DNA of 64,000 nt from Thermoprotei archaeon (lineage in GTDB: Archaea > Thermoproteota > Thermoprotei > QMSL01 > B3-G16), in the NCBI GenBank assembly GCA_021162845.1, contig JAGGXX010000054.1, positions 4,537 through 68,536 on the forward strand, read 5' to 3'. The notes beneath the pieces were generated by a model. It had not been told where the DNA came from and made no database searches. It saw only the letters and a program-made list of their open reading frames with translations. The position numbers and the translations under genes are program-made. Positions 14,871 through 62,750 of this stretch are shown here, piece after piece. The stretch's first letter is position 1; every line of letters starts with the position of its first letter.

Positions 14871-15983
14871 ATGTCCGGGTACTTTATATCTAAACTTAAA
14901 CAGGCTGAGTACGCATTTACCTTTGAGGATTTCATACTCCTCCCAGGAAGGACGAGCGTTGATCCTAAGGAAGTTGATATCTCGAGTAAGTTCAGCGTCA
15001 ATATAAAGTTGAAATTGCCTTTCGTCTCCTCACCGATGGACACGGTTACCGAAGCTGAAATGGCGATAGCCATGGCCGAAAATGGAGGCATAGGAGTGCT
15101 TCATAGGAACTGTACCGTCGAGGAACAAGTCAAAATGGCCATTGAAGTCAGAAGGTATATGGCCGATTGCGTAGGAGCCACCTTAAATAGGGATGGCGAG
15201 CTTGCCTGTGCTGCGGCGATATCGCCCTTTGACGTCAATAGGGCTTTAAAATTGAGCAGGTATGTAGATGCATTAGTCATAGATGTGGCTCATTTCCATA
15301 ACGAGAAAGTAATCAAGGCCACCAAGAAATTATTGAAGTTAGTGAATGTAGACGTAATAGTCGGTAATTTAGGTACATATGAGGCCGCGGAAGAAGTAAT
15401 CACTACTCTAGATACGGTAGCGGGCCTCAGGGTCGGTATAGGCTCTGGGTCCATATGCATTACAAGCCATTACATGCGTGTAGGAGCTCCCACGCTATTT
15501 GCAACAGCTCAGGTAGCGGACGCCTTAAAGGACTATGGCGCGGATATACCGATCATAGCGGATGGCGGAATTAAAGGGCCTGGAGACATAGCGCTAGCCT
15601 TCGCCGTAGGAGCCTCTACAGCGATGTTAGGAAACCTACTGGCACGATGTGAGGAATCAGCTGGGGAAATGGTAATAGTTGATGGGAGGCGTTACAAGAG
15701 GTACCGCGGTATGGCTAGCCCAGGGGCGATGGCACGAAGGTACGCTCTTGATAGGTATAGCCATCCATCTAAGGACATAGCGGAGGGCGTAGAGGGATTA
15801 GTACCCTGTGAGGGAAAGGTTAGGGACGTATTACTGAAGCTCGCCTCTGGCCTAAAGGTATCTATGGGATACGTGGGAGCTAGCAATATAAGGGAGATGT
15901 GGACTAAGGCTAGGCTTCTAAGGGTGAGTAATGTAGGACTACGTGAGCTAGGGCCCCATGACATAATCAGGATTAACTTATAG
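14871..15983 (+). CDS. IMP dehydrogenase/GMP reductase-family protein lacking the CBS subdomain
   Basis: Catalytic-loop signature GIGSGSICITSHYMRVGAPTLFA (GxGxGSICxT) and a nucleotide-binding region IIADGGIKGPGDIALAFAVGAS. At 370 aa there is no CBS pair insert. Confidence 0.6.
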   Translation: MSGYFISKLKQAEYAFTFEDFILLPGRTSVDPKEVDISSKFSVNIKLKLPFVSSPMDTVTEAEMAIAMAENGGIGVLHRNCTVEEQVKMAIEVRRYMADCVGATLNRDGELACAAAISPFDVNRALKLSRYVDALVIDVAHFHNEKVIKATKKLLKLVNVDVIVGNLGTYEAAEEVITTLDTVAGLRVGIGSGSICITSHYMRVGAPTLFATAQVADALKDYGADIPIIADGGIKGPGDIALAFAVGASTAMLGNLLARCEESAGEMVIVDGRRYKRYRGMASPGAMARRYALDRYSHPSKDIAEGVEGLVPCEGKVRDVLLKLASGLKVSMGYVGASNIREMWTKARLLRVSNVGLRELGPHDIIRINL

Positions 15984-16499
15984 CCCGAGGAGCTCAATAA
16001 AGAATACCCAAGCGTAATTCCACTTAGATCTCATATAGGGAAAGTTAAGCACCTGAATTAAGCGATAAGTGTCTTCTCACTCATGCTACAGTCCTTTTAT
16101 GAAGGAGGCCCCATTGGCAAGGCGCCCACGGATACTGACGCATATGCGTCACTTATTAACCACGGTGATCTATCGCTGTTTAATACCCAGGTCGACGATG
16201 AAGTATGGTATTTATATTAAAAAGAGGGTATCCTTCGTGGTACCTGTTCATGCGCCACCCCTAAGGATTATGGGAATCATAACGATATCCTCTTATAGGA
16301 TGGTTTTTTCTTTCGCATCCTTACGTAATCCCCCAAGGATGTGAATTCGTACCTGATCTCACTCGGCTTTATCGATTTCAGACGTGAAATTCAGATTCTA
16401 TATGTATATTGTCTCCCTTAGCGAGGGCACGTCTTCATGACCGGAAAGAGAGATAATAGCCGCGATGAGTTCAAGAGTAATCATAAATGAACATAAGAG

Positions 16500-18323
16500 A
16501 TGAGCAATAACTACTCTTGGGGTGAGCGGTACTTGCCGAGTAGGCTGTGGGATGTCTTAGGGAGCCTCATAGATGTCGCCTTGGGCCGGGAGAAGGCCGA
16601 TTTGGTGATAAAGGGGGGCATCCTTGTAGACGTATACTCAGGCGAGATACTGGAGGATATAGACGTAGCCATAAAGGGCGATAGGATAGCATACGTGGGG
16701 GATGACGCTGAGCATACCATAGGTAAGGATACCTTAGTGATGAAGGCTAGGGGGAGGTATCTAGCTCCCGGTCTTATCGACGCCCATGTACATGTGGAAA
16801 GTAGCATGCTCACGCTTACGGAGTTCTCTAAGGCCGTGATACCCAGGGGCACTACCAGCATCTTCGCTGATCCACATGAGATATGTAACGTACTTGGAGA
16901 GTACGGATTCAAACTTATGATTGAGGAAGCGAGTAAGGTACCCTTAAGAGTATATCTGCAGGTACCTTCGTGCGTTCCAGCTGCTTCATTGGAGTTCGAG
17001 ACTCCGGGGGCTGTCATGGACTCCGATATAGTGTGCAGATTAATGAAGGAACACGATGTCCTGGCCTTAGGAGAAATGATGAACTATCCGGGTGTCATAA
17101 GCAAGGATCAGGAGGTTATGAACAAGATAACATGTTCCCTAAAGTTAGGAAGGGTCGTTACCGGCCATGCACCGCTTCTGAGGGATAAGGAGCTCTCGGC
17201 GTACATAGCGGCTGGTGTAAGCTCATGTCATGAAAGCACCATGCAGGAGGAGGCATTGGAAAAACTAAGGCTTGGGATGTACGTTATGGTAAGGGAAGGG
17301 TCGGCTTGGAAAGACGTAAAGGAGGTCATTAAAATAATCACGGAGCGTAAGGTGGATTCCCGTCACGTATTGCTCGCAACCGACGATCGGCATCCGGAGG
17401 ACATACTCCGCGAAGGACATATGGACTTCGTCGTTAAGAGGGCAATAGAGGAAGGCGTAGAGCCCGTAAAAGCGATACAAATGGCGACGTTGAACACGGC
17501 ACAGTACTATAATGTTGAACAGGATATAGGCGGAATAGCGCCTGGCAGATATGCGGATATCATCGTGTTAAGGGATTTGCCTAGGATGTCCGTAGAAGCG
17601 GTCGTGCTCGGGGGTGAAATCGCCGCAAAAGAAGGGAGGCTGTTAGCTAGAATAGGCGACTTCAGATATCCTTCGGACGTTAGAAAGACCATCAGGCTTA
17701 CCAGGGAGATAGTGCCCTCTGATCTGAAGATATTAAGCAGGAGGAAAGAGGGGAGCGTAAAGGCACATGTCATTAAGATAATCGAGGGAAAGACGATTAC
17801 GGTACATGAGATATGCGAGTTATCGGTAGTTGATCATGTAGTCCAGCCTGATTTAGATAACGATATAGTTCTCGCATCGGTGGTTGAGAGACATAAGGGG
17901 ACGAATAGAGTGGGAAAGGGATTCGTTAAGGGCCTTGGCCTGAAAATAGGCGCCTTTGCGTCCTCGGTGGCCCACGATAGCCACAACATAGTGGTCGTGG
18001 GAACTAATTGGAACGACATGGCGTATGCCGTTAACGAGTTGAGGAAAAGTGGGGGAGGAATGGTAGCCGTTATGAATGGAAGTGTAGGGGCTATCGTCAG
18101 TTTACCGATAGCTGGACTTATAACGGATCGCCCCATAGAGGAAGTAGCAGACGACGTAAGAAAGCTAAGGAATGTATTAATGAATATGGGGTGTACCATA
18201 AAGTCTCCTTTCATGACCATTTCGTTACTAGCGCTTACGGTGATACCTGAGATCAGGCTCTCAGATAAGGGAGTGGTCGATGTCAATAAAGGACGTATCA
18301 TCCCGCCTATTGAGGAGGATTAG
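16500..18323 (+). CDS. ade: adenine deaminase
   Basis: Amidohydrolase metal site ...APGLIDAHVHVESSM..., and the length and layout of adenine deaminase (~600 aa). Confidence 0.8.
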   Translation: MSNNYSWGERYLPSRLWDVLGSLIDVALGREKADLVIKGGILVDVYSGEILEDIDVAIKGDRIAYVGDDAEHTIGKDTLVMKARGRYLAPGLIDAHVHVESSMLTLTEFSKAVIPRGTTSIFADPHEICNVLGEYGFKLMIEEASKVPLRVYLQVPSCVPAASLEFETPGAVMDSDIVCRLMKEHDVLALGEMMNYPGVISKDQEVMNKITCSLKLGRVVTGHAPLLRDKELSAYIAAGVSSCHESTMQEEALEKLRLGMYVMVREGSAWKDVKEVIKIITERKVDSRHVLLATDDRHPEDILREGHMDFVVKRAIEEGVEPVKAIQMATLNTAQYYNVEQDIGGIAPGRYADIIVLRDLPRMSVEAVVLGGEIAAKEGRLLARIGDFRYPSDVRKTIRLTREIVPSDLKILSRRKEGSVKAHVIKIIEGKTITVHEICELSVVDHVVQPDLDNDIVLASVVERHKGTNRVGKGFVKGLGLKIGAFASSVAHDSHNIVVVGTNWNDMAYAVNELRKSGGGMVAVMNGSVGAIVSLPIAGLITDRPIEEVADDVRKLRNVLMNMGCTIKSPFMTISLLALTVIPEIRLSDKGVVDVNKGRIIPPIEED

Positions 18324-21782: not shown

Positions 21783-22617
21783 CGGTTAGCCTTTTAGCGC
21801 CCACGCTTATTATAAGCATTAATTCAAGTATCTTATAGACGTCAAGTACGTCCTCAGTGTTATATTCCACAACGAGCCCATCCCTTCGTTTAACGCCAGG
21901 TATTAGCTCCACGAAGTCCGCTATGAGGCTATCAGTGAACTCCACGGATACTTCATAGGGGCCCTTAGGGGCAAAGACTGGGATCTCGTTCCTCTTGACC
22001 TTCTCCAGTGCCCGCCTGACCGCAGACTTTATAGTCTCGTAAACCGCTAGGGGATGCCTCATTAAAGCAGCGGATCGGGAGAGTCCTTTCTTGGTCTCAA
22101 CGACTTCTATTTGAGGTATGAGCTCCTTAGCATGAGCCACGAGTTTATCATCGCCTGTCACTAGGGCTACTGGAATCCCAAATCGCCCGGCTACAGCTGC
22201 GTTAAGCCAAAACTCGCTGACCTCCTCATCATTAATTCTGATCCTCTGGATCATCACTCCGCTCAGCGTATGATCCCATATGGAGTAAGGGATGCCCTTC
22301 CTAGAGTGGTAACCTATAAAGAAGGCTGCATCGAATCCCTCATCCATCAAACTTACCATAGAAAGGGGTTTAGGAAAGCCGTAGATTACATTGACGTAAT
22401 CAGGTAATTCCTCCAATAAGAGATTCGTCATACTACCATGTGCATCATTAACTACGATCATATCAACGCCAAAGTCCTTCGCGCCTTCAATCGCGGCTTT
22501 GACCTCAAGGGTCATTAACTTCCTACCGCGTTCATACTCCCTCTTACCTGGTCCTAGCTGATGAATGGAGGCTATGCCAGATATGCCCTCCATGTCGACG
22601 GATATATAAAGACGCAT
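21760..22617 (-). CDS. dppA: peptidase M55 family (D-aminopeptidase DppA-like)
   Basis: N-terminus MRLYISVDMEGISGIASIHQ matches the DppA/M55 family start (MKLYISxDMEGISG). Confidence 0.65.
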   Translation of the reverse strand: MRLYISVDMEGISGIASIHQLGPGKREYERGRKLMTLEVKAAIEGAKDFGVDMIVVNDAHGSMTNLLLEELPDYVNVIYGFPKPLSMVSLMDEGFDAAFFIGYHSRKGIPYSIWDHTLSGVMIQRIRINDEEVSEFWLNAAVAGRFGIPVALVTGDDKLVAHAKELIPQIEVVETKKGLSRSAALMRHPLAVYETIKSAVRRALEKVKRNEIPVFAPKGPYEVSVEFTDSLIADFVELIPGVKRRDGLVVEYNTEDVLDVYKILELMLIISVGAKRLTGASYDNA

Positions 22618-25266: not shown

Positions 25267-25471
25267 AGGCCAAGCTAAGGCATGGGAAAGACCAGCTTGA
25301 ATACCTCATGGTAATGAGAAGCTTAGGGAACCTCGATGATGAACGATGAGAAGCTATCTTCAGAATAATACCTAAAAATATTATCATAGATTAACACACG
25401 TAAATAAGAGAGTACATGAAGGAAAATCCAGTAATGAATGACATATTAAGATAATAGTAAAGAGAAAAATA

Positions 25472-25837
25472 TCATTCAACGTTTATCTTCTTGCCAGCTA
25501 TCTTCTTCGGTAAGATAACGGTCAAAAGGCCATTTTCGTATTTAGCAATGACGTTGTCTGGATTTACCTCTGAGGGTAGGACTAGGTATCTGTGATATAC
25601 TGGCGATATGTAAAATCTGCGAGCCTCTTCGGGTATCTTAGCCTTAACGCGGACTGCACGTCCATCAACGTAGAGCTCTATATCCTCCTTTCTAAGGCCG
25701 GGCATTACGAACCTTAGCACTATTTTATCTACCTGATCCTCTAGGTCCACTCCTTCCAATAGTGCTAATCCCTTCTTCAAACGCCCGATGAGTGCACTAA
25801 GAGGTGGCATGGTTAAGGAGAACACATATACGCCCAT
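25472..25837 (-). CDS. hsp20: Hsp20/alpha-crystallin family small heat shock protein
   Basis: Alpha-crystallin domain with ...ENGLLTVILPKK... 121 aa. Confidence 0.85.
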   Translation of the reverse strand: MGVYVFSLTMPPLSALIGRLKKGLALLEGVDLEDQVDKIVLRFVMPGLRKEDIELYVDGRAVRVKAKIPEEARRFYISPVYHRYLVLPSEVNPDNVIAKYENGLLTVILPKKIAGKKINVE

Positions 25838-25847
25838 TTACCACACC

Positions 25848-26273
25848 TCATTCGATCGGTACCCGCCTCCACCCTCTGCCCCTTTCTCTTCGCATAAGAC
25901 CCTCCATTATCAGTAATGACGTTAAGAGCAGGCGTTCTCCCTTGGGAGATAACTGGTATGCGCCGTTCCGTTTGTCCACGAGACCGCAACGAGTCATGAG
26001 TTTTAGATTAAAAGACACGATCCTAGGATTCATGCTCAGGCTGGAGACGAAGTCCTGAAATCTCATTCTTTTACGTCTTAACATCTCGAGCATCATCAAT
26101 AACCGCTTCGCATTGGAAAGAGCCTTATGCACTTCAGTGAATTCCCTTACCTCGTTAAGCGTCTGATCTACATCTCCCAATAATCTGGTCATTATATCCC
26201 TGAGTTCTTCCTGCGGTAGACTGAAATCAATTAGCTTCTCATCGTCCTTCATTATTATTATCCTTAACTTCAA
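25848..26273 (-). CDS. winged-HTH (ArsR-like) transcriptional regulator, co-directional with and 10 nt upstream of hsp20
   Basis: HTH-like segment ...RFQDFVSSLSMNPRIVSFNLKLMTRCGLVDKRNGAYQLSPKGERLL. The track start is TTG (26273); an in-frame ATG lies at 26252. Confidence 0.5.
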   Translation of the reverse strand: MKLRIIIMKDDEKLIDFSLPQEELRDIMTRLLGDVDQTLNEVREFTEVHKALSNAKRLLMMLEMLRRKRMRFQDFVSSLSMNPRIVSFNLKLMTRCGLVDKRNGAYQLSPKGERLLLTSLLIMEGLMRRERGRGWRRVPIE

Positions 26274-26293
26274 GGGGCTCTCCTCGGGGAGGT

Positions 26294-26321
26294 TACATTA
26301 ATGTAATTACATTAATGTAAT
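26294..26321. promoter_or_regulatory. two tandem copies of the perfect 14-bp palindrome TTACATTAATGTAA in the promoter of the regulator-hsp20 operon
   Basis: Seen directly: ggTTACATTAATGTAATTACATTAATGTAAtttaagc. It lies 21-48 bp upstream of the TTG start and overlaps AT-rich TATA-like sequence. Confidence 0.55.
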
Positions 26322-26390
26322 TTAAGCTTTCCTCTAAAGCGGCATAGACCATGGGGAGTTCCTGGGACGTAAGTAGCAACGTCAAACACA

Positions 26391-26807
26391 TCAAGGGACT
26401 AGGGGTTCGCTAGTCCTCAACCTCCTCTCCTCCTTGAGCCTCCAGAGGCCCTTAGCTGGATCCTCGATCACTATCTCCAGTCTGCTTATCAATTGATCAT
26501 TGATTAGAACTTCATCACTATACTCGGAGATGACTAAGAAAGAGGCCATGGGGTGCGCCTTAATGCCTTCTGCAATTAGGGATACCTCAGCCCCCTTAAT
26601 CCTATAGACCCTGACTAAGCCCGATGTGGACCCATAGGTTTCAACCAACGTTCCCTCAAGCAGGCTTGGTCACACTCCCAGCCGTTCAGCGATGAGGATA
26701 GGGATCAATATCTCTGGGACATCTCCTTCGAAACCCGTGCTAACTAACGCAGTGACGCCGACGTTTTTACCTCTATATTTCACCTCTATCCTCACCCTTA
26801 CGCCCAT
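26391..26807 (-). pseudogene. retropepsin-like (clan AA) aspartic-protease-like reading frame interrupted by an in-frame TGA; catalytic DTG reads STG
   Basis: A minus-strand frame from ATG 26807 gives MGVRVRIEVKYRGKNVGVTALVSTGFEGDVPEILIPILIAERLGV, then TGA (26672..26670). The same frame continues as PSLLEGT + LVETYGSTSGLVRVYRIKG... (track ORF 26391..26648, TTG start). Both pieces share the reading frame (coordinates congruent mod 3). Confidence 0.3.
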
Positions 26808-58423: not shown

Positions 58424-58870
58424 TCATTCTATTTTTATGGAGACCTTCTTCGGTACTTCAGCCTTTGGAAGTTCGACCACTAGGATTCCATCCTGGTAGC
58501 GTGCTTTAGTTTCCTCGGGCTTTATCTTGTCAGGCAAGCGGATCGTCCTATTGTAAGCCCTATGGATTATCTCCTTAGATATGAGGCGAGCTCCTTTTAC
58601 GTCGACGGGCCTGACCTCACCTCGTATCTCAAGCATATCTTCACTTGCGTTTAGGATCAGCTTATCCTTGGGGACACCTGGTATTTCTACTATGACTAAG
58701 TATTTATCCTCAGCCTCATATACGTCAACTAAGGGTTCTTTAATTGATCTCTCCCTTCCTCGGATTACAGGACGAACCCAGGGTTCGAAGGATTCTAAGA
58801 ATCGTTCCATATCACTAGCTAGGCGGGAGATCTCCCTCTGAATACGCCTAAAGTCCTCAGAAAAACTCAT
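58424..58870 (-). CDS. hsp20: Hsp20/alpha-crystallin family small heat shock protein
   Basis: Alpha-crystallin domain with ...YQDGILVVELPK.... It lies 35 bp downstream of reverse gyrase on the same strand. Confidence 0.8.
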   Translation of the reverse strand: MSFSEDFRRIQREISRLASDMERFLESFEPWVRPVIRGRERSIKEPLVDVYEAEDKYLVIVEIPGVPKDKLILNASEDMLEIRGEVRPVDVKGARLISKEIIHRAYNRTIRLPDKIKPEETKARYQDGILVVELPKAEVPKKVSIKIE

Positions 58871-58905: not shown

Positions 58906-61900
58906 CTAAATATCTTTTCCCACTTCACGAATGAGCTTGACCCTATCCTTTACCTCGCGATATAATTCCTTGATCACTTCTTGATAATCAGCCTTGCCTA
59001 GCTCTATTACGTCCATGAGTTTTTCTAACTTACGGGTGCGCTCTTCAGAGACGAGATCTTTGTAATTAGTTGATAGATATTTATAGACCTCTATGCCTAA
59101 TTTCGTCGGTATAAGCCTGCGTCTTTTCTGCGATTCAATTACGTACTTGCGCTCGATGAGCGTACGTATTATCTTGGCATAAGTAGATGGTCTACCTATG
59201 CCCCTTCTCTTCATAAGATCAACGACATCGCCTTGGCTAAATAACATCACACTTGGGAGCTTCGCGTGTGTGGCTTCTACTATCCGTAGCCTATCGCCTT
59301 TCTTCATCTCAGGGATGAAGAGGGACTCCTCTATAGGATAAACCCTCGAGAACCCATCGTATATCACCTTGGTTATACCTGTGACCTCCTTCTGTATATC
59401 GCCTATCTTGAGAAGGGTCTTGAGCCGTAAGACCTTAGCTGACTTCATTTGACTAGCCAGGAAGCGACGGAATATCATATCATAGAGCCTATAGTGAAGC
59501 CAGGTAAGCGGGCGGGGTGTTCTAATTATGCCATCGCGTATTAGCTGGGCTAGCTTATCTACATCAAGGGGACGAGTAGGGCGAATGCATTCATGTGCTC
59601 CACCGGTACCCCAGTCTCTACCTTGATAGTACTCCTCACCTAAGGATTCCCTGATGTACTCCTTCGCTATCATCATGCCTACCGCTGAGACCCTCGTGCT
59701 GTCAGTCCTATGATATGTGATTAAACCGAACTCGAATAGGTCTTGAGCGAGTGACATAGTCCTCGCTACATCCATTCCCAATCTAGATGACGCCTCTCTT
59801 AGTAAAGCATCTGTCGTAAAGGGCGGTGGAGGGTTTATCGTGGCTTCATGGATCTCAGCATCGACTACCACGCACTCGGATCCCTGAAGCTCCTTTACGA
59901 ACTCCTTAAGAGGTTTTTCCACGTATACGTCTTTAAGCATAAGCCTAAGGCCGTTTTCCAGCGTTATGTATATGTGATCCGCTATGCTATCCCTATGTTC
60001 ATTATAACGTTGGATTATCCAACCTAGGACAGGCGTCTGAACTCTACCAGCGGATAATCGCCTACTTTTGAACTGCTCCCATAATTCCTCGCTGAGGGCG
60101 AAGCCTATCCACCTATCCTCAAGCCTACGGACTATTTGCGCCTCTACTAAACGTTCATCTATATCCCTAGGGTTCTTAAGGGCTTCGAGGATGGCACGCT
60201 TTGTGATCTCATGGAATTCGATGCGCCTTATGTAGCTAGTATAGGGCTTTATCACAGTGGCTATATCCCAGCCTATCTTCTCGCCCTCTGTATCAGGATC
60301 CGTTCCTATCAGAATTATGTCGACCTCACGGGCTAGGTCCCTAAGCGTGTAAACGACTTCAGCCTTATCGGTGAATTCGGTGGACTTACATAGGGGGCAT
60401 GCGTCCAGACCCACGAATTGTTCACCACAGTTCGCACATCGCCTTATGGTCGAGTATACTGGTACGAAGCGCTTGTCTATGATCCTAGTGCCATAAAAGT
60501 CCTCTGGAGTTAACACTAAGTCGAACACGTGACCGCCACTAGCTATTATCGAGAGCATGTAAGTGCCAGTACTAGTCTCGTATACCACATAACGACCGAT
60601 CCTCCTAAGGGAGGGCCTGCCGAAGAAGCTAGCAATAGTTCTGGCCTTACTAGGCGACTCTACGATCATCAACGCGCTTTTCACGGGATCCTTGAATTCC
60701 ACCTTGATCTTTCCGGCCAGTAGGTCGCTAATTATGCGTCTATCGCGGTCTATCTCATTTATAAGAGATCTAACATCAACTTCCTCTAGAGATCTCCATG
60801 AAATATCTTCTATGAACCAACGGGTCTTCCTAACTAAGCCTTGAAAGACCTTATCGTTATCAATTATGACTATGGAGGCTCCCTTTGATATACCTCCTGC
60901 GAACATCCTAGAGGTACGTCCGCTGGCCTGTATGTACGTCATGGTATCTGGGACTATGACCCGCAAGGTGCCCTCCACTTCCTCTAATAAGATGTAGGGA
61001 CTTTCCTGGATCTTCTTCTTTACATCCTCACGTGCTAATAACTCACATACCTTATGATAGCCGAGTAGAAATAGCTCTTGGGCTTTGCCTAATGTACCCT
61101 TTAATTTAGTACCTTCTTCTATCGCCTTTCTGATCTCGGCTACTCTATTAGGCGGAAGTTCTCTTAGATACCGCATTATGCGCACGAAGAGTTTATCCAC
61201 TTCATCACGCTCCTTGCCCTCAAGATAATCCCTTAAGTCGAATAACAGCGAGGCAATCCTGAAGGGATGCACTTCCTTAGCCTCTAGGCTGAAACGTAAC
61301 TTAGGAACACCTACGAATACCGCGTAACGTATCCTCTGTGGAAGATCAAGCCCTCTAACTAATAACCCATAGTACGTAGCAACTCCGACCAGCACATCGA
61401 CTTCGCCCCTGAGAAACCTCTCTATCTGGTCACCCTTCTTTGATGAGACCACTACCTCAGCCCTGACACCATGTTGGTTTAAGAACTCAGAGAGCTCCTC
61501 TGCATAACTTGCTCCCTTATCTATTGGTACGAATACTAGCCCACCATCACCGAATAGCCTTATGATCCTTAAGACCTCCTTCTCAATATCCTCCTTAGGC
61601 TTATGGTAAATGTCCTCGATGTTCCTGATGAGCTCGGATCTACTGCCTGCTTCGAAGCCTAACAGTTCTCGAAATAGCCTAACCCTAAGACCCCTAGCCC
61701 TACCGGTAGCGCTGGATACGACCAATACGCCTAGATCCCGCTTACTTAAGGACTCCTTAATCTCCCTCTCAAGTTTTCGTATATTTGAAACTGCTTCCTC
61801 TAGCTTTACCTTATAGGACTCGTCCTGTCTAGCGAACGTGATTAAGAAGGGAATGCTTCTCCTCAACCTTATGAGCTCAAGCCCTAGTTCTATTAAATTC

Positions 61901-62634
61901 TCATCCGCACCTAACAATATTAGAACTCTATCTATATTCCTAGATGACTTAAGAAGCGCATCTACGTCATCAACAAATATGAAGTCGAATCGTACGTTCC
62001 TTAGCTTATCGAAGTTCCTTGCAAGGAACTGCGATGTGGTGATAAGCACTTGGAAGTCGCCTGCCCTCATTTTCTCAATGAAATTGGCCCTTCCATTCTT
62101 TAGGAGGGCAGGGTGGTACGCTAATATCTCCACATTAATCTCGGCCTTGGAGGCTAAATCGCGCATCCTCTCGAAAACCTGTCGGACGAGCACTGTTGTT
62201 GGAAGTAACATGTAGCACCTTTTCCCTTTAGATGCTAAGTACAACGAAATCAGCATTCCAAACATAGTCTTGCCGACCCCGGTAGGCGCTATTATGGCAA
62301 AGCTTCTGCCCTTTAGGACCCTCTTAGCCCATGTCCGTTGTGCACTCCATAGGCGGCTGCCCGTCACCTTATTGAATAGCTTGTCTAATTCGGAGAGTTC
62401 TAAATCCAGTTTAATGGTGTCCTCATAGTCCTTAAGAGATCCTAACTCCTTCAGGGCATCTCTAACCTTGAGCTTGAAAGCCAAAGGAGTTAATTCAGCA
62501 TAAGCCTTCAGCAGCTCCCTAGCCTTATCCTCGGGTAAGCACCTTCGACAAGGAAGGGAATGCAGGAGCCTATCATCAGCTATCTCGCCTCCGCAGTTAG
62601 GACACGCGTTAAGGAATATCGCGCGTATCATCAT
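58906..62634 (-). CDS. rgy: reverse gyrase (N-terminal SF2 helicase-like domain with zinc finger fused to type IA topoisomerase)
   Basis: N-terminal Zn finger CPNCGGEI...CRRC. Helicase motif I IIAPTGVGKT. DEAD-like DFIFVDDVD. C-terminal topo IA module with TOPRIM (ESPSKA), a second Zn finger CANCGEQF...CPLC, and the active-site Tyr region. 1242 aa. Confidence 0.95.
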   Translation of the reverse strand: MMIRAIFLNACPNCGGEIADDRLLHSLPCRRCLPEDKARELLKAYAELTPLAFKLKVRDALKELGSLKDYEDTIKLDLELSELDKLFNKVTGSRLWSAQRTWAKRVLKGRSFAIIAPTGVGKTMFGMLISLYLASKGKRCYMLLPTTVLVRQVFERMRDLASKAEINVEILAYHPALLKNGRANFIEKMRAGDFQVLITTSQFLARNFDKLRNVRFDFIFVDDVDALLKSSRNIDRVLILLGADENLIELGLELIRLRRSIPFLITFARQDESYKVKLEEAVSNIRKLEREIKESLSKRDLGVLVVSSATGRARGLRVRLFRELLGFEAGSRSELIRNIEDIYHKPKEDIEKEVLRIIRLFGDGGLVFVPIDKGASYAEELSEFLNQHGVRAEVVVSSKKGDQIERFLRGEVDVLVGVATYYGLLVRGLDLPQRIRYAVFVGVPKLRFSLEAKEVHPFRIASLLFDLRDYLEGKERDEVDKLFVRIMRYLRELPPNRVAEIRKAIEEGTKLKGTLGKAQELFLLGYHKVCELLAREDVKKKIQESPYILLEEVEGTLRVIVPDTMTYIQASGRTSRMFAGGISKGASIVIIDNDKVFQGLVRKTRWFIEDISWRSLEEVDVRSLINEIDRDRRIISDLLAGKIKVEFKDPVKSALMIVESPSKARTIASFFGRPSLRRIGRYVVYETSTGTYMLSIIASGGHVFDLVLTPEDFYGTRIIDKRFVPVYSTIRRCANCGEQFVGLDACPLCKSTEFTDKAEVVYTLRDLAREVDIILIGTDPDTEGEKIGWDIATVIKPYTSYIRRIEFHEITKRAILEALKNPRDIDERLVEAQIVRRLEDRWIGFALSEELWEQFKSRRLSAGRVQTPVLGWIIQRYNEHRDSIADHIYITLENGLRLMLKDVYVEKPLKEFVKELQGSECVVVDAEIHEATINPPPPFTTDALLREASSRLGMDVARTMSLAQDLFEFGLITYHRTDSTRVSAVGMMIAKEYIRESLGEEYYQGRDWGTGGAHECIRPTRPLDVDKLAQLIRDGIIRTPRPLTWLHYRLYDMIFRRFLASQMKSAKVLRLKTLLKIGDIQKEVTGITKVIYDGFSRVYPIEESLFIPEMKKGDRLRIVEATHAKLPSVMLFSQGDVVDLMKRRGIGRPSTYAKIIRTLIERKYVIESQKRRRLIPTKLGIEVYKYLSTNYKDLVSEERTRKLEKLMDVIELGKADYQEVIKELYREVKDRVKLIREVGKDI

Positions 62635-62750
62635 ATACTACCTCGGATAGACCAGCTCGTTTGGATTACGCGAGGGGAACTATATTAAGCTGATCCCTCA
62701 GAACTATGACAAAATATAAATGATGTAGGAGGCAAAACACGTGAGTCACG

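Follow-up and report, generated by a model that had tools for sequence, protein, structure and literature searches.

A tandem-palindrome promoter element, a winged-helix protein and hsp20: a candidate autoregulated heat-shock module of TACK and Asgard archaea

Two transcription factors of the archaeal heat-shock response are known, Phr and HSR1, and both are euryarchaeal (PMC9133787, PMC10746257, PMC10653856). Phr binds a 29-bp site over the transcription start site (TSS) and blocks the recruitment of RNA polymerase (PMC9133787, PMC6316755). HSR1 autoregulates an operon that contains hsp20 (PMC9133787, PMC10653856). No thermal regulator has been identified in the Crenarchaeota (PMC10746257, PMC10653856, PMC9133787). 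Here we describe a locus in a 64-kb stretch of DNA from a Thermoprotei archaeon (contig JAGGXX010000054.1; the whole stretch is called the window below), in which a tandem palindrome stands in front of a gene for a winged-helix protein and a gene for Hsp20. A sequence-only reading of the window had taken the locus for a candidate crenarchaeal heat-shock circuit, remarking that heat-shock regulation is poorly characterised in that group and that Phr and HSR1 are euryarchaeal; the literature cited above agrees on both points. Searches of the literature for the motif, for ArsR-hsp20 pairs and for Asgard hsp20 regulators returned no description of the regulator family. The comparisons reported here support a putative autoregulated repressor-small heat-shock protein (sHSP) module, built on a protein lineage distinct from Phr and HSR1, in archaea without a described regulator.

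The 14-bp palindrome TTACATTAATGTAA occurs in the window in exactly two exact copies, at positions 26293–26306 and 26307–26320. Because the two copies abut, they form a larger perfect palindrome of 28 bp, in which four heptamers alternate. The window contains just one perfect palindrome of at least 20 bp, and it lies inside this element. The sequence-only reading had placed the pair 21–48 bp upstream of the regulator gene; the upstream placement holds, and the interval measured is 20–47 (−20 to −47 relative to the TTG start codon). Allowing up to two mismatches to TTACATTAATGTAA adds one match, at 22386 within a peptidase M55 gene (number of matches expected at up to two mismatches, 0.30). The TATA-proximal copy, dyad A (26307–26320), fits the consensus TTAC-N6-GTAA that is shared by the homologues described below, and the start-proximal copy, dyad B (26293–26306), is predicted to lie over the TSS. 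A putative TFB-recognition element (BRE) and TATA-like element, GGAAAG-CTTAAATT (26319–26332, minus strand), ends within the first bases of dyad A. At the equivalent position directly 5′ of the dyads, the homologues carry TTTATATA or TTAAATA.

The regulator gene (25848–26273, minus strand) encodes 141 residues with an ArsR/SmtB-type winged helix and starts at TTG. This start was accepted because homologues align from residue 1–3 and share the beginning Mx[LI][KR][IL]x[IL], and because GAGGAG stands 6 nt upstream (Shine-Dalgarno-like GAGGAGAG, 26278–26285, minus strand). AAGAGG or GGAGG occupies this position in the Asgard-type homologues. As had been read from the sequence, hsp20 follows the regulator stop codon after 10 nt. 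It encodes a 121-residue sHSP (25472–25837, minus strand; PF00011, E = 2.8e-14) with an alpha-crystallin domain and an IXI-type C-terminal tail, KKINVE; its top NCBIfam matches are archaeal Hsp14 and Hsp20, both under cut-off. Its Shine-Dalgarno sequence, GAGGTG (25844–25849, minus strand), overlaps the regulator stop codon, which points to translational coupling and suggests that the two genes are co-transcribed. Three nucleotides past the hsp20 stop codon is the oligo-T tract TTTTTCTCTTT (25459–25469, minus strand), a probable archaeal terminator and the probable end of the operon.

The tandem palindrome probably serves as operator in an autoregulatory circuit, where the co-encoded winged-helix protein would act as a repressor of its own gene and of hsp20 under the control of a heat or proteotoxic signal. 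The half-sites of a dyad are one helical turn (10 bp) apart, a spacing that suits an ArsR/SmtB-type dimer, and each 14-bp unit may be bound by one dimer of the protein encoded downstream. Archaeal transcription starts about 25 bp downstream of the TATA centre. Given this usual distance, dyads that start at the 3′ edge of the TATA box are expected to cover about −23 to +5, and two bound dimers would exclude RNA polymerase and probably TFB/TBP too. Binding to the third dyad that some homologues carry on the BRE side would probably also exclude TFB/TBP. The predicted bicistronic regulator-hsp20 transcript, ending at 25459–25469, would thereby be repressed and autoregulated. Proteotoxic stress, most likely heat, would release the repressor and induce both genes, with repression restored later.

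Starting from protein homology, 11 loci were compared: the window, L003, L006, L009, L010, L011, L012, L014, L096, L097/L219 and L223. The triad of regulator, operator and hsp20 is kept in these 11 distinct homologues, at identities down to about 25%. The next gene on the same strand encodes an Hsp20/alpha-crystallin protein in all ten loci with enough sequence, the window counted; the L010 contig ends 34 codons into the gene after the regulator. The partner in L014 has no Pfam match; against a profile built from the other partners it scores 24.8 bits, with the entire alpha-crystallin domain aligned. The gap between the two genes in the homologues ranges from an overlap to 25 nt. Flanking genes vary between loci, with hsp20 as the sole conserved neighbour, showing that the regulator-hsp20 pair is a self-contained module.

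Exact TTAC-N6-GTAA dyads occur within 100 nt upstream of the regulator, beside a TATA-like box, in all 11 loci. At the sequence level, dyads between a TATA-like box and the start codon, as in a Phr/HSR1-type operator, are found in each of the 11. The common layout is a TATA box, 0–2 nt, two (sometimes three) dyads 14–16 bp apart, a Shine-Dalgarno sequence and the start codon, and many loci carry an additional dyad 23–24 bp farther upstream, beyond the TATA box. Two abutting dyads follow TTAAAT in the window and TTTATATA in both L096 and L223, the latter from Methanomethylicia; abutting dyads, 14 bp from centre to centre, recur in ten of the loci found by motif (see below). L097 has a TATA box, a dyad, 2 nt and a second dyad, and L010 has TTAAATA, a dyad, 1 nt and a dyad with one mismatch. 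The two dyads of L003 are 18 bp apart. In L006, L009 and L011 the TATA box is flanked by one dyad on each side, and in L012 and L014 it is followed by just one.

The 1,100 nt upstream of the 11 regulators hold 18 exact dyads, against 4 in the other 125.6 kb. All four belong to the window and are intragenic, in genes of unrelated function (PhoU/TrkA-C, DUF362, peptidase M55 and Yip1); together with the two operator dyads they make six in the window, compared with 0.98 expected. Multiplied over the loci, the chance probabilities come to about 1e-28. This statistic was confined to the 11 homology-first loci, and the 14 loci selected by their dyads were kept out of it. In a set of 23 loci (109 kb), 52 of 52 exact dyads lie in the regulator promoter. 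The first reading had held that a common dispersed repeat unrelated to promoters would refute its proposal; both a dispersed repeat and chance are excluded by the uniqueness of the element in the window, by the confinement of the dyads to the regulator promoters in the 23 loci and by the probability of about 1e-28.

The reverse comparison started from the DNA motif. A metagenome collection was scanned for the pattern TTAC-N6-GTAA-N0-2-TTAC-N6-GTAA; at least 120 stretches carried it, and 120 were examined. Comparing the family profile with all open reading frames (ORFs) identified a family member in 14 of the 120 (E 1e-30 to 1e-48), directly 3′ of the dyads. The regulator family is so rare that this recovery is beyond chance. 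An Hsp20-like ORF comes after the regulator in 11 of 11 resolvable cases, and none of the 120 stretches has an Hsp20-like ORF without the regulator. In these promoters a dyad is followed by 9–10 bp with a TTTATATA box, then by a pair of abutting dyads, by AAGAGG or GGAGG and by ATG; three loci have three consecutive dyads 3′ of the TATA box.

The same scan returned two further kinds of element. Nine stretches, mostly gut-type contigs (L134, L195, L198, L199, L153, L099, L188, L132 and L154), contain a pair of TTACC-N4-GGTAA dyads spaced by 15 bp, often set within AAATA...TATTT and with no family regulator nearby; this pair probably serves an unrelated bacterial system as operator. Iteron-like head-to-tail arrays of the TTAC-N6-GTAA type, with a period of 15 or 16 bp, occur in L135 (3207–3379), L160 (1464–1859), L182 (2911–2969) and L105 (764–792) and are unrelated to the regulator family.

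A comparison of 46 distinct dyads shows no invariant bases beyond TTAC and GTAA; C or T is favoured at position 5, and the central bases are complementary in 11–13 of the 46, which is the chance level. Since the arm sequence is kept and the centre pairs at chance, these are protein-binding dyads with half-sites 10 bp apart, and no hairpin is conserved. Judged from these sequences, the conserved determinant is TTAC-N6-GTAA, of which the perfect 14-mer of the window is an unusually symmetric instance. The proposal of a dedicated repressor with its operator and hsp20 target is strengthened by the conservation of the triad, while the perfect palindrome gives way to TTAC-N6-GTAA as its defining feature.

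The dyad composition also bears on control at the RNA level, in which a hairpin or RNA thermometer in the 5′ untranslated region would govern translation of the regulator and hsp20. RNA thermometers are frequent at bacterial sHSP genes, and the region, if transcribed, folds at −19.3 kcal/mol with z = −4.2. A small CCUC...GAGG stem (26278–26289, minus strand) would cover part of the regulator Shine-Dalgarno sequence, and L010 has a similar CUCC...GAGG pair. However, the predicted TSS, at about 26294–26299, falls inside dyad B, so the hairpin would not be transcribed intact; the homologues keep the arm sequence and not the base pairing; and the pairing with the Shine-Dalgarno sequence is missing from most of them. 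A 4-bp stem is moreover negligible at the growth temperature of an organism with reverse gyrase. An RNA hairpin or thermometer is hardly credible given where the dyads lie with respect to the TATA box and given the absent covariation, and it was rejected.

The position of the dyads has consequences for the sign of regulation. Archaeal activators typically bind upstream of the BRE, and many Asgard-type promoters have a dyad on the BRE side of the TATA box, at a distance of 23–24 bp from the first of the downstream dyads. The regulator might then be an activator, or play a dual role, with the upstream dyad recruiting TFB/TBP and the downstream dyads tuning expression. Yet in the window, L096, L097, L223, L012 and L014 the exact dyads of the promoter are confined to the interval from TATA box to start codon, and dyads that touch the TATA box on both sides fit occlusion better than recruitment. 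A dyad position between TATA and start has been linked with repression in archaea, as for Phr (PMC9133787). We consider activation very unlikely, and the repressor remains the role assumed for the protein below.

To delimit the regulator family, 1.84 billion representative proteins were scanned exhaustively with HMMER at E ≤ 1e-3. This identified 34 relatives, nearly all of 130–145 residues, co-linear and aligned from the N-terminus. HMMER was needed for this: a word-indexed protein search returned only a 99% identical copy when started from the single protein and few members when started from alignments. The family is distributed over Thermoproteota-type thermophiles, Methanomethylicia and Asgard metagenome-assembled genomes (MAGs); Promethearchaeota, Hodarchaeota and Methanomethylicia MAGs supplied its named members, none of which is from a cultured organism. 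GCA_048886265.1, GCA_964623205.1 and GCA_038880695.1 are MAGs with the module. The description of the circuit as crenarchaeal fits the Thermoproteota-type host of the window, but the module is not confined to crenarchaea and is conserved across phyla. Scanning the GTDB representatives with the window regulator gave no close relative. The neighbouring GuaA reached at best 58–60% identity in a second scan, with assorted Thermoproteota MAGs and no syntenic regulator. The window comes from a Thermoproteota/TACK thermophile with no reference genome close to it; the presence of reverse gyrase marks the organism as a thermophile or hyperthermophile.

An alignment of 28 family sequences displays a conserved N-terminal strand pair, a winged helix whose recognition helix starts with NPK-x-V, and a C-terminal helix. 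Four residues are invariant (F72, N82, Y106 and G112), and R57 is nearly so. The AlphaFold model made on the family alignment (mean predicted local distance difference test score, pLDDT, 90.7) has a beta-hairpin at residues 3–19 and a helix at 21–33, followed by the canonical ArsR/SmtB core, alpha1-alpha2-alpha3-alphaR-beta1-beta2-alpha5; the last 20 residues are flexible and end in WRRVPIE. The N-terminal extension of beta-hairpin and helix has no match among solved structures. HTH_5 is matched at E < 0.01 by 19 of the 28 members, and the family profile matches AntR (6uvu) with E 5.9e-8. The regulator is best regarded as one of an sHSP-linked subfamily of ArsR/SmtB-like winged-helix proteins that has not been described before.

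This kinship raises the question whether the protein could be an ordinary ArsR/SmtB sensor of a metal, a metalloid or redox state, its link to hsp20 reflecting general stress. The best matches in sequence and structure are indeed metal- or sulfide-sensing proteins (AntR, CzrA, CadC, SmtB and SqrR), and the NCBIfam model named metalloregulator is the top match, though under cut-off. But the 28-sequence alignment has no conserved Cys or His column, so the canonical alpha3N and alpha5 metal sites are absent, and the regulator has no linked gene for transport or detoxification in the homologous loci, where hsp20 is the only conserved neighbour. The metal-sensor reading was rejected because ligand residues are not conserved, and a sensor of this ordinary type is unlikely. 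With an sHSP as the sole conserved target and no conserved ligand residues, heat or proteotoxic stress is the most plausible signal for the repressor.

How such a signal might reach the repressor is suggested by its tail. The IXI motif is an established oligomerisation peptide of sHSPs that docks into the alpha-crystallin domain of a neighbour (PMC9133787). In the thermophile subclade (window, L003, L010, L011, L012 and P0055) all six regulators end in W-R-[RK]-[IV]-x-[VI]-E, namely WRRVPIE, WRKIPVE, WRRIRVE twice, WRRIKVE and WRRVKVE, and the four complete Hsp20 partners all end in [RK][RK]-I-x-V-E, namely KKINVE, KKIAVE, RRIPVE and RRIKVE. In L012 the regulator and its Hsp20 alike end in RRIKVE. 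The sequences concerned in the window are 25848–25868 for the regulator and 25472–25495 for hsp20. The regulator from Methanomethylicia, P0056, ends in EINVL, and the pLDDT of the regulator tail, 61–65, is low, as expected of a docking peptide.

The likeness of the tail to IXI suggests docking on the partner Hsp20, which would allow feedback by chaperone titration. The operator and the repressor would be the same as in the scheme above; the IXI-like tail would dock in the beta4-beta8 groove of Hsp20, free Hsp20 would set the activity of the repressor, and client-loaded Hsp20 would release it, as in HspR-DnaK or HrcA-GroEL. On the other hand, the mimicry is limited to one subclade and may represent a single ancestral event. 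Asgard-type regulators have an acidic LEELEEL/F/Y tail, several of their Hsp20 partners lack a terminal IXI, and a basic regulator tail could equally contact DNA. Titration is therefore possible but doubtful. If the mimicry is real, it would link the occupancy of an sHSP to transcription; the literature searched contains no sHSP that feeds back on a transcription factor through IXI mimicry.

Several observations weigh against an autoregulatory repressor responsive to heat. The first concerns the signal, since heat is the weakest link in the scheme: sediment Asgard MAGs, presumably mesophilic, account for many family members, and the signal need not be heat as such. The second concerns the promoter, in which the TATA box and the TSS were assigned by eye and by analogy. 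The third concerns the protein. The window regulator scores below the curated helix-turn-helix cut-offs, with 17.6 bits against 22 for HTH_5 (PF01022) and 33.5 against 55 for NF033788, so it is a divergent relative of ArsR/SmtB and no model-defined member. The fourth is the lack of any second target promoter in the regions scanned, which were the 64-kb window and 20 kb around the P0031 locus; the latter has no extra dyads at all. The regulon may accordingly equal the operon alone.

The first reading had called for a genome-wide search for further sites, to see whether the regulon includes chaperonin, prefoldin or reverse gyrase. The window, scanned in full, has no further exact site in a promoter and a single weak candidate, at reverse gyrase. 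In the reverse gyrase promoter (62666–62689), TTAATATA is followed after 1 nt by the one-mismatch dyad TTCCCCTCGCGTAA (minus strand; TTCC-N6-GTAA), about 33 nt before the ATG. This site could be a weak operator, but one-mismatch dyads number 48 in the window, too frequent to inform, and the site is only a lead. A second hsp20 (58424–58870; PF00011, E = 1.9e-15) follows the reverse gyrase gene (58906–62634) after a 35-nt gap; it lacks the element, as had been noted, and the gap contains no dyad.

Possible targets were also seen on other contigs. In L130 (530–559, minus strand) TTAAATA is directly followed by two dyads, TTACTTTAAGGTAA-TA-TTACCTTAAGGTAA, 19–27 nt upstream of a gene for a Cdc48/VAT AAA+ ATPase that extends from about 510 downwards (CDC48_N, E = 1.2e-24). 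This is a single motif-first case, on a 1.7-kb contig of 35% guanine plus cytosine without the regulator, and the window has no site of the cdc48 type. In L223 (2020–2150), 1.3 kb upstream of the regulator-hsp20 pair, a second short hsp20 with the tail REVKVE is preceded by the TATA-like AAATTTAAT and the one-mismatch dyad GTACAAATGTGTAA.

Two small minus-strand ORFs lie just upstream of the operon, at 26391–26648 (85 residues) and 26670–26807 (45 residues), neither with a Pfam match. The near-identical contigs L001 and L002 have both ORFs. None of the homologous loci has them, which places them outside the regulator-hsp20 module. Two other long perfect palindromes were recorded in the window: TGACGCATATGCGTCA at 16136–16151, between ORFs ending at 15983 and starting at 16500, and AGTTCCTTGCAAGGAACT at 62013–62030, within the ORF of reverse gyrase.

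In bacteria, too, chaperone genes have dedicated autoregulated repressors that act on promoter inverted repeats, as in RheA-hsp18 of Streptomyces albus, HspR/HAIR and HrcA/CIRCE. RheA controls an sHSP and is itself the thermosensor, and HspR and HrcA are tuned by chaperone titration. All three belong to unrelated protein families and act at bacterial sigma-70 promoters on other operators, and rheA is divergent from hsp18 and not co-transcribed with it. CzrA, CadC, SmtB and HlyU are set apart from the window family by its lack of conserved metal ligands, its archaeal promoter, its obligate hsp20 partner, its extra N-terminal beta-hairpin and helix, and its family scores below cut-off. IbpA of E. 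coli (bioRxiv 10.1101/2020.04.20.050740) is reported to be an sHSP that exerts feedback on its own expression as an aggregation sensor, close to the idea of tail mimicry; this feedback is translational and acts on its own mRNA, and it is not known to involve a transcription factor or IXI mimicry.

HSR1 (AF1298 of Archaeoglobus fulgidus) is encoded by the first gene of an autoregulated hsp20 operon with a palindromic operator upstream (PMC9133787, PMC10653856), the arrangement predicted for the window regulator. Its operon also holds cdc48, and its motif is CTAAC-N5-GTTAG. HSR1 is reportedly a distant relative of Phr. Cdc48 is the second target in the Phr and HSR1 regulons, whereas in the window family the hint of such a target comes from the L130 contig alone.

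Phr (PF1790; Pyrococcus furiosus and Thermococcus kodakarensis) shares three features with the window regulator: a DNA-binding domain of the ArsR winged-helix type; a symmetric, A/T-rich site that follows the TATA box and, as predicted for the window, lies over the TSS (that of Phr has TGGTAA there); and autoregulation with hsp20 as a target, likewise predicted here. The block of RNA polymerase recruitment has been shown for Phr and would apply by analogy to the present protein. The two proteins differ in build. Phr has about 200 residues, with an N-terminal winged helix-turn-helix and a C-terminal BAG-like helical domain, whereas the window regulator, with 141 residues, has a 40-residue N-terminal extension of beta-hairpin and helix and only alpha5 and a short tail after the wing. 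The window regulator has no match to the NCBIfam model NF053602 (Phr_regulator) at E < 0.1, P0038 scores 15.6 bits against it (cut-off 320) over model positions 4–57 of 191 only, and Phr ranks behind generic bacterial ArsR proteins in both sequence and structure comparison. Membership in the Phr/HSR1 family was rejected on the missing match to the Phr_regulator model and on the different domain order and length.

The operator differs as well, being TTAC-N6-GTAA and usually tandem in the window family, where regulator and hsp20 share one putative operon, and the distribution is TACK and Asgard rather than euryarchaeal. The family thus provides a delimited candidate for a heat-shock regulator of TACK and Asgard archaea, recognisable by its 130–145 residues, TTAC-N6-GTAA dyads that touch the TATA box and an obligate sHSP target. 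If this is true, control of an sHSP by a repressor placed over the TSS would have arisen in a protein lineage separate from that of Phr.

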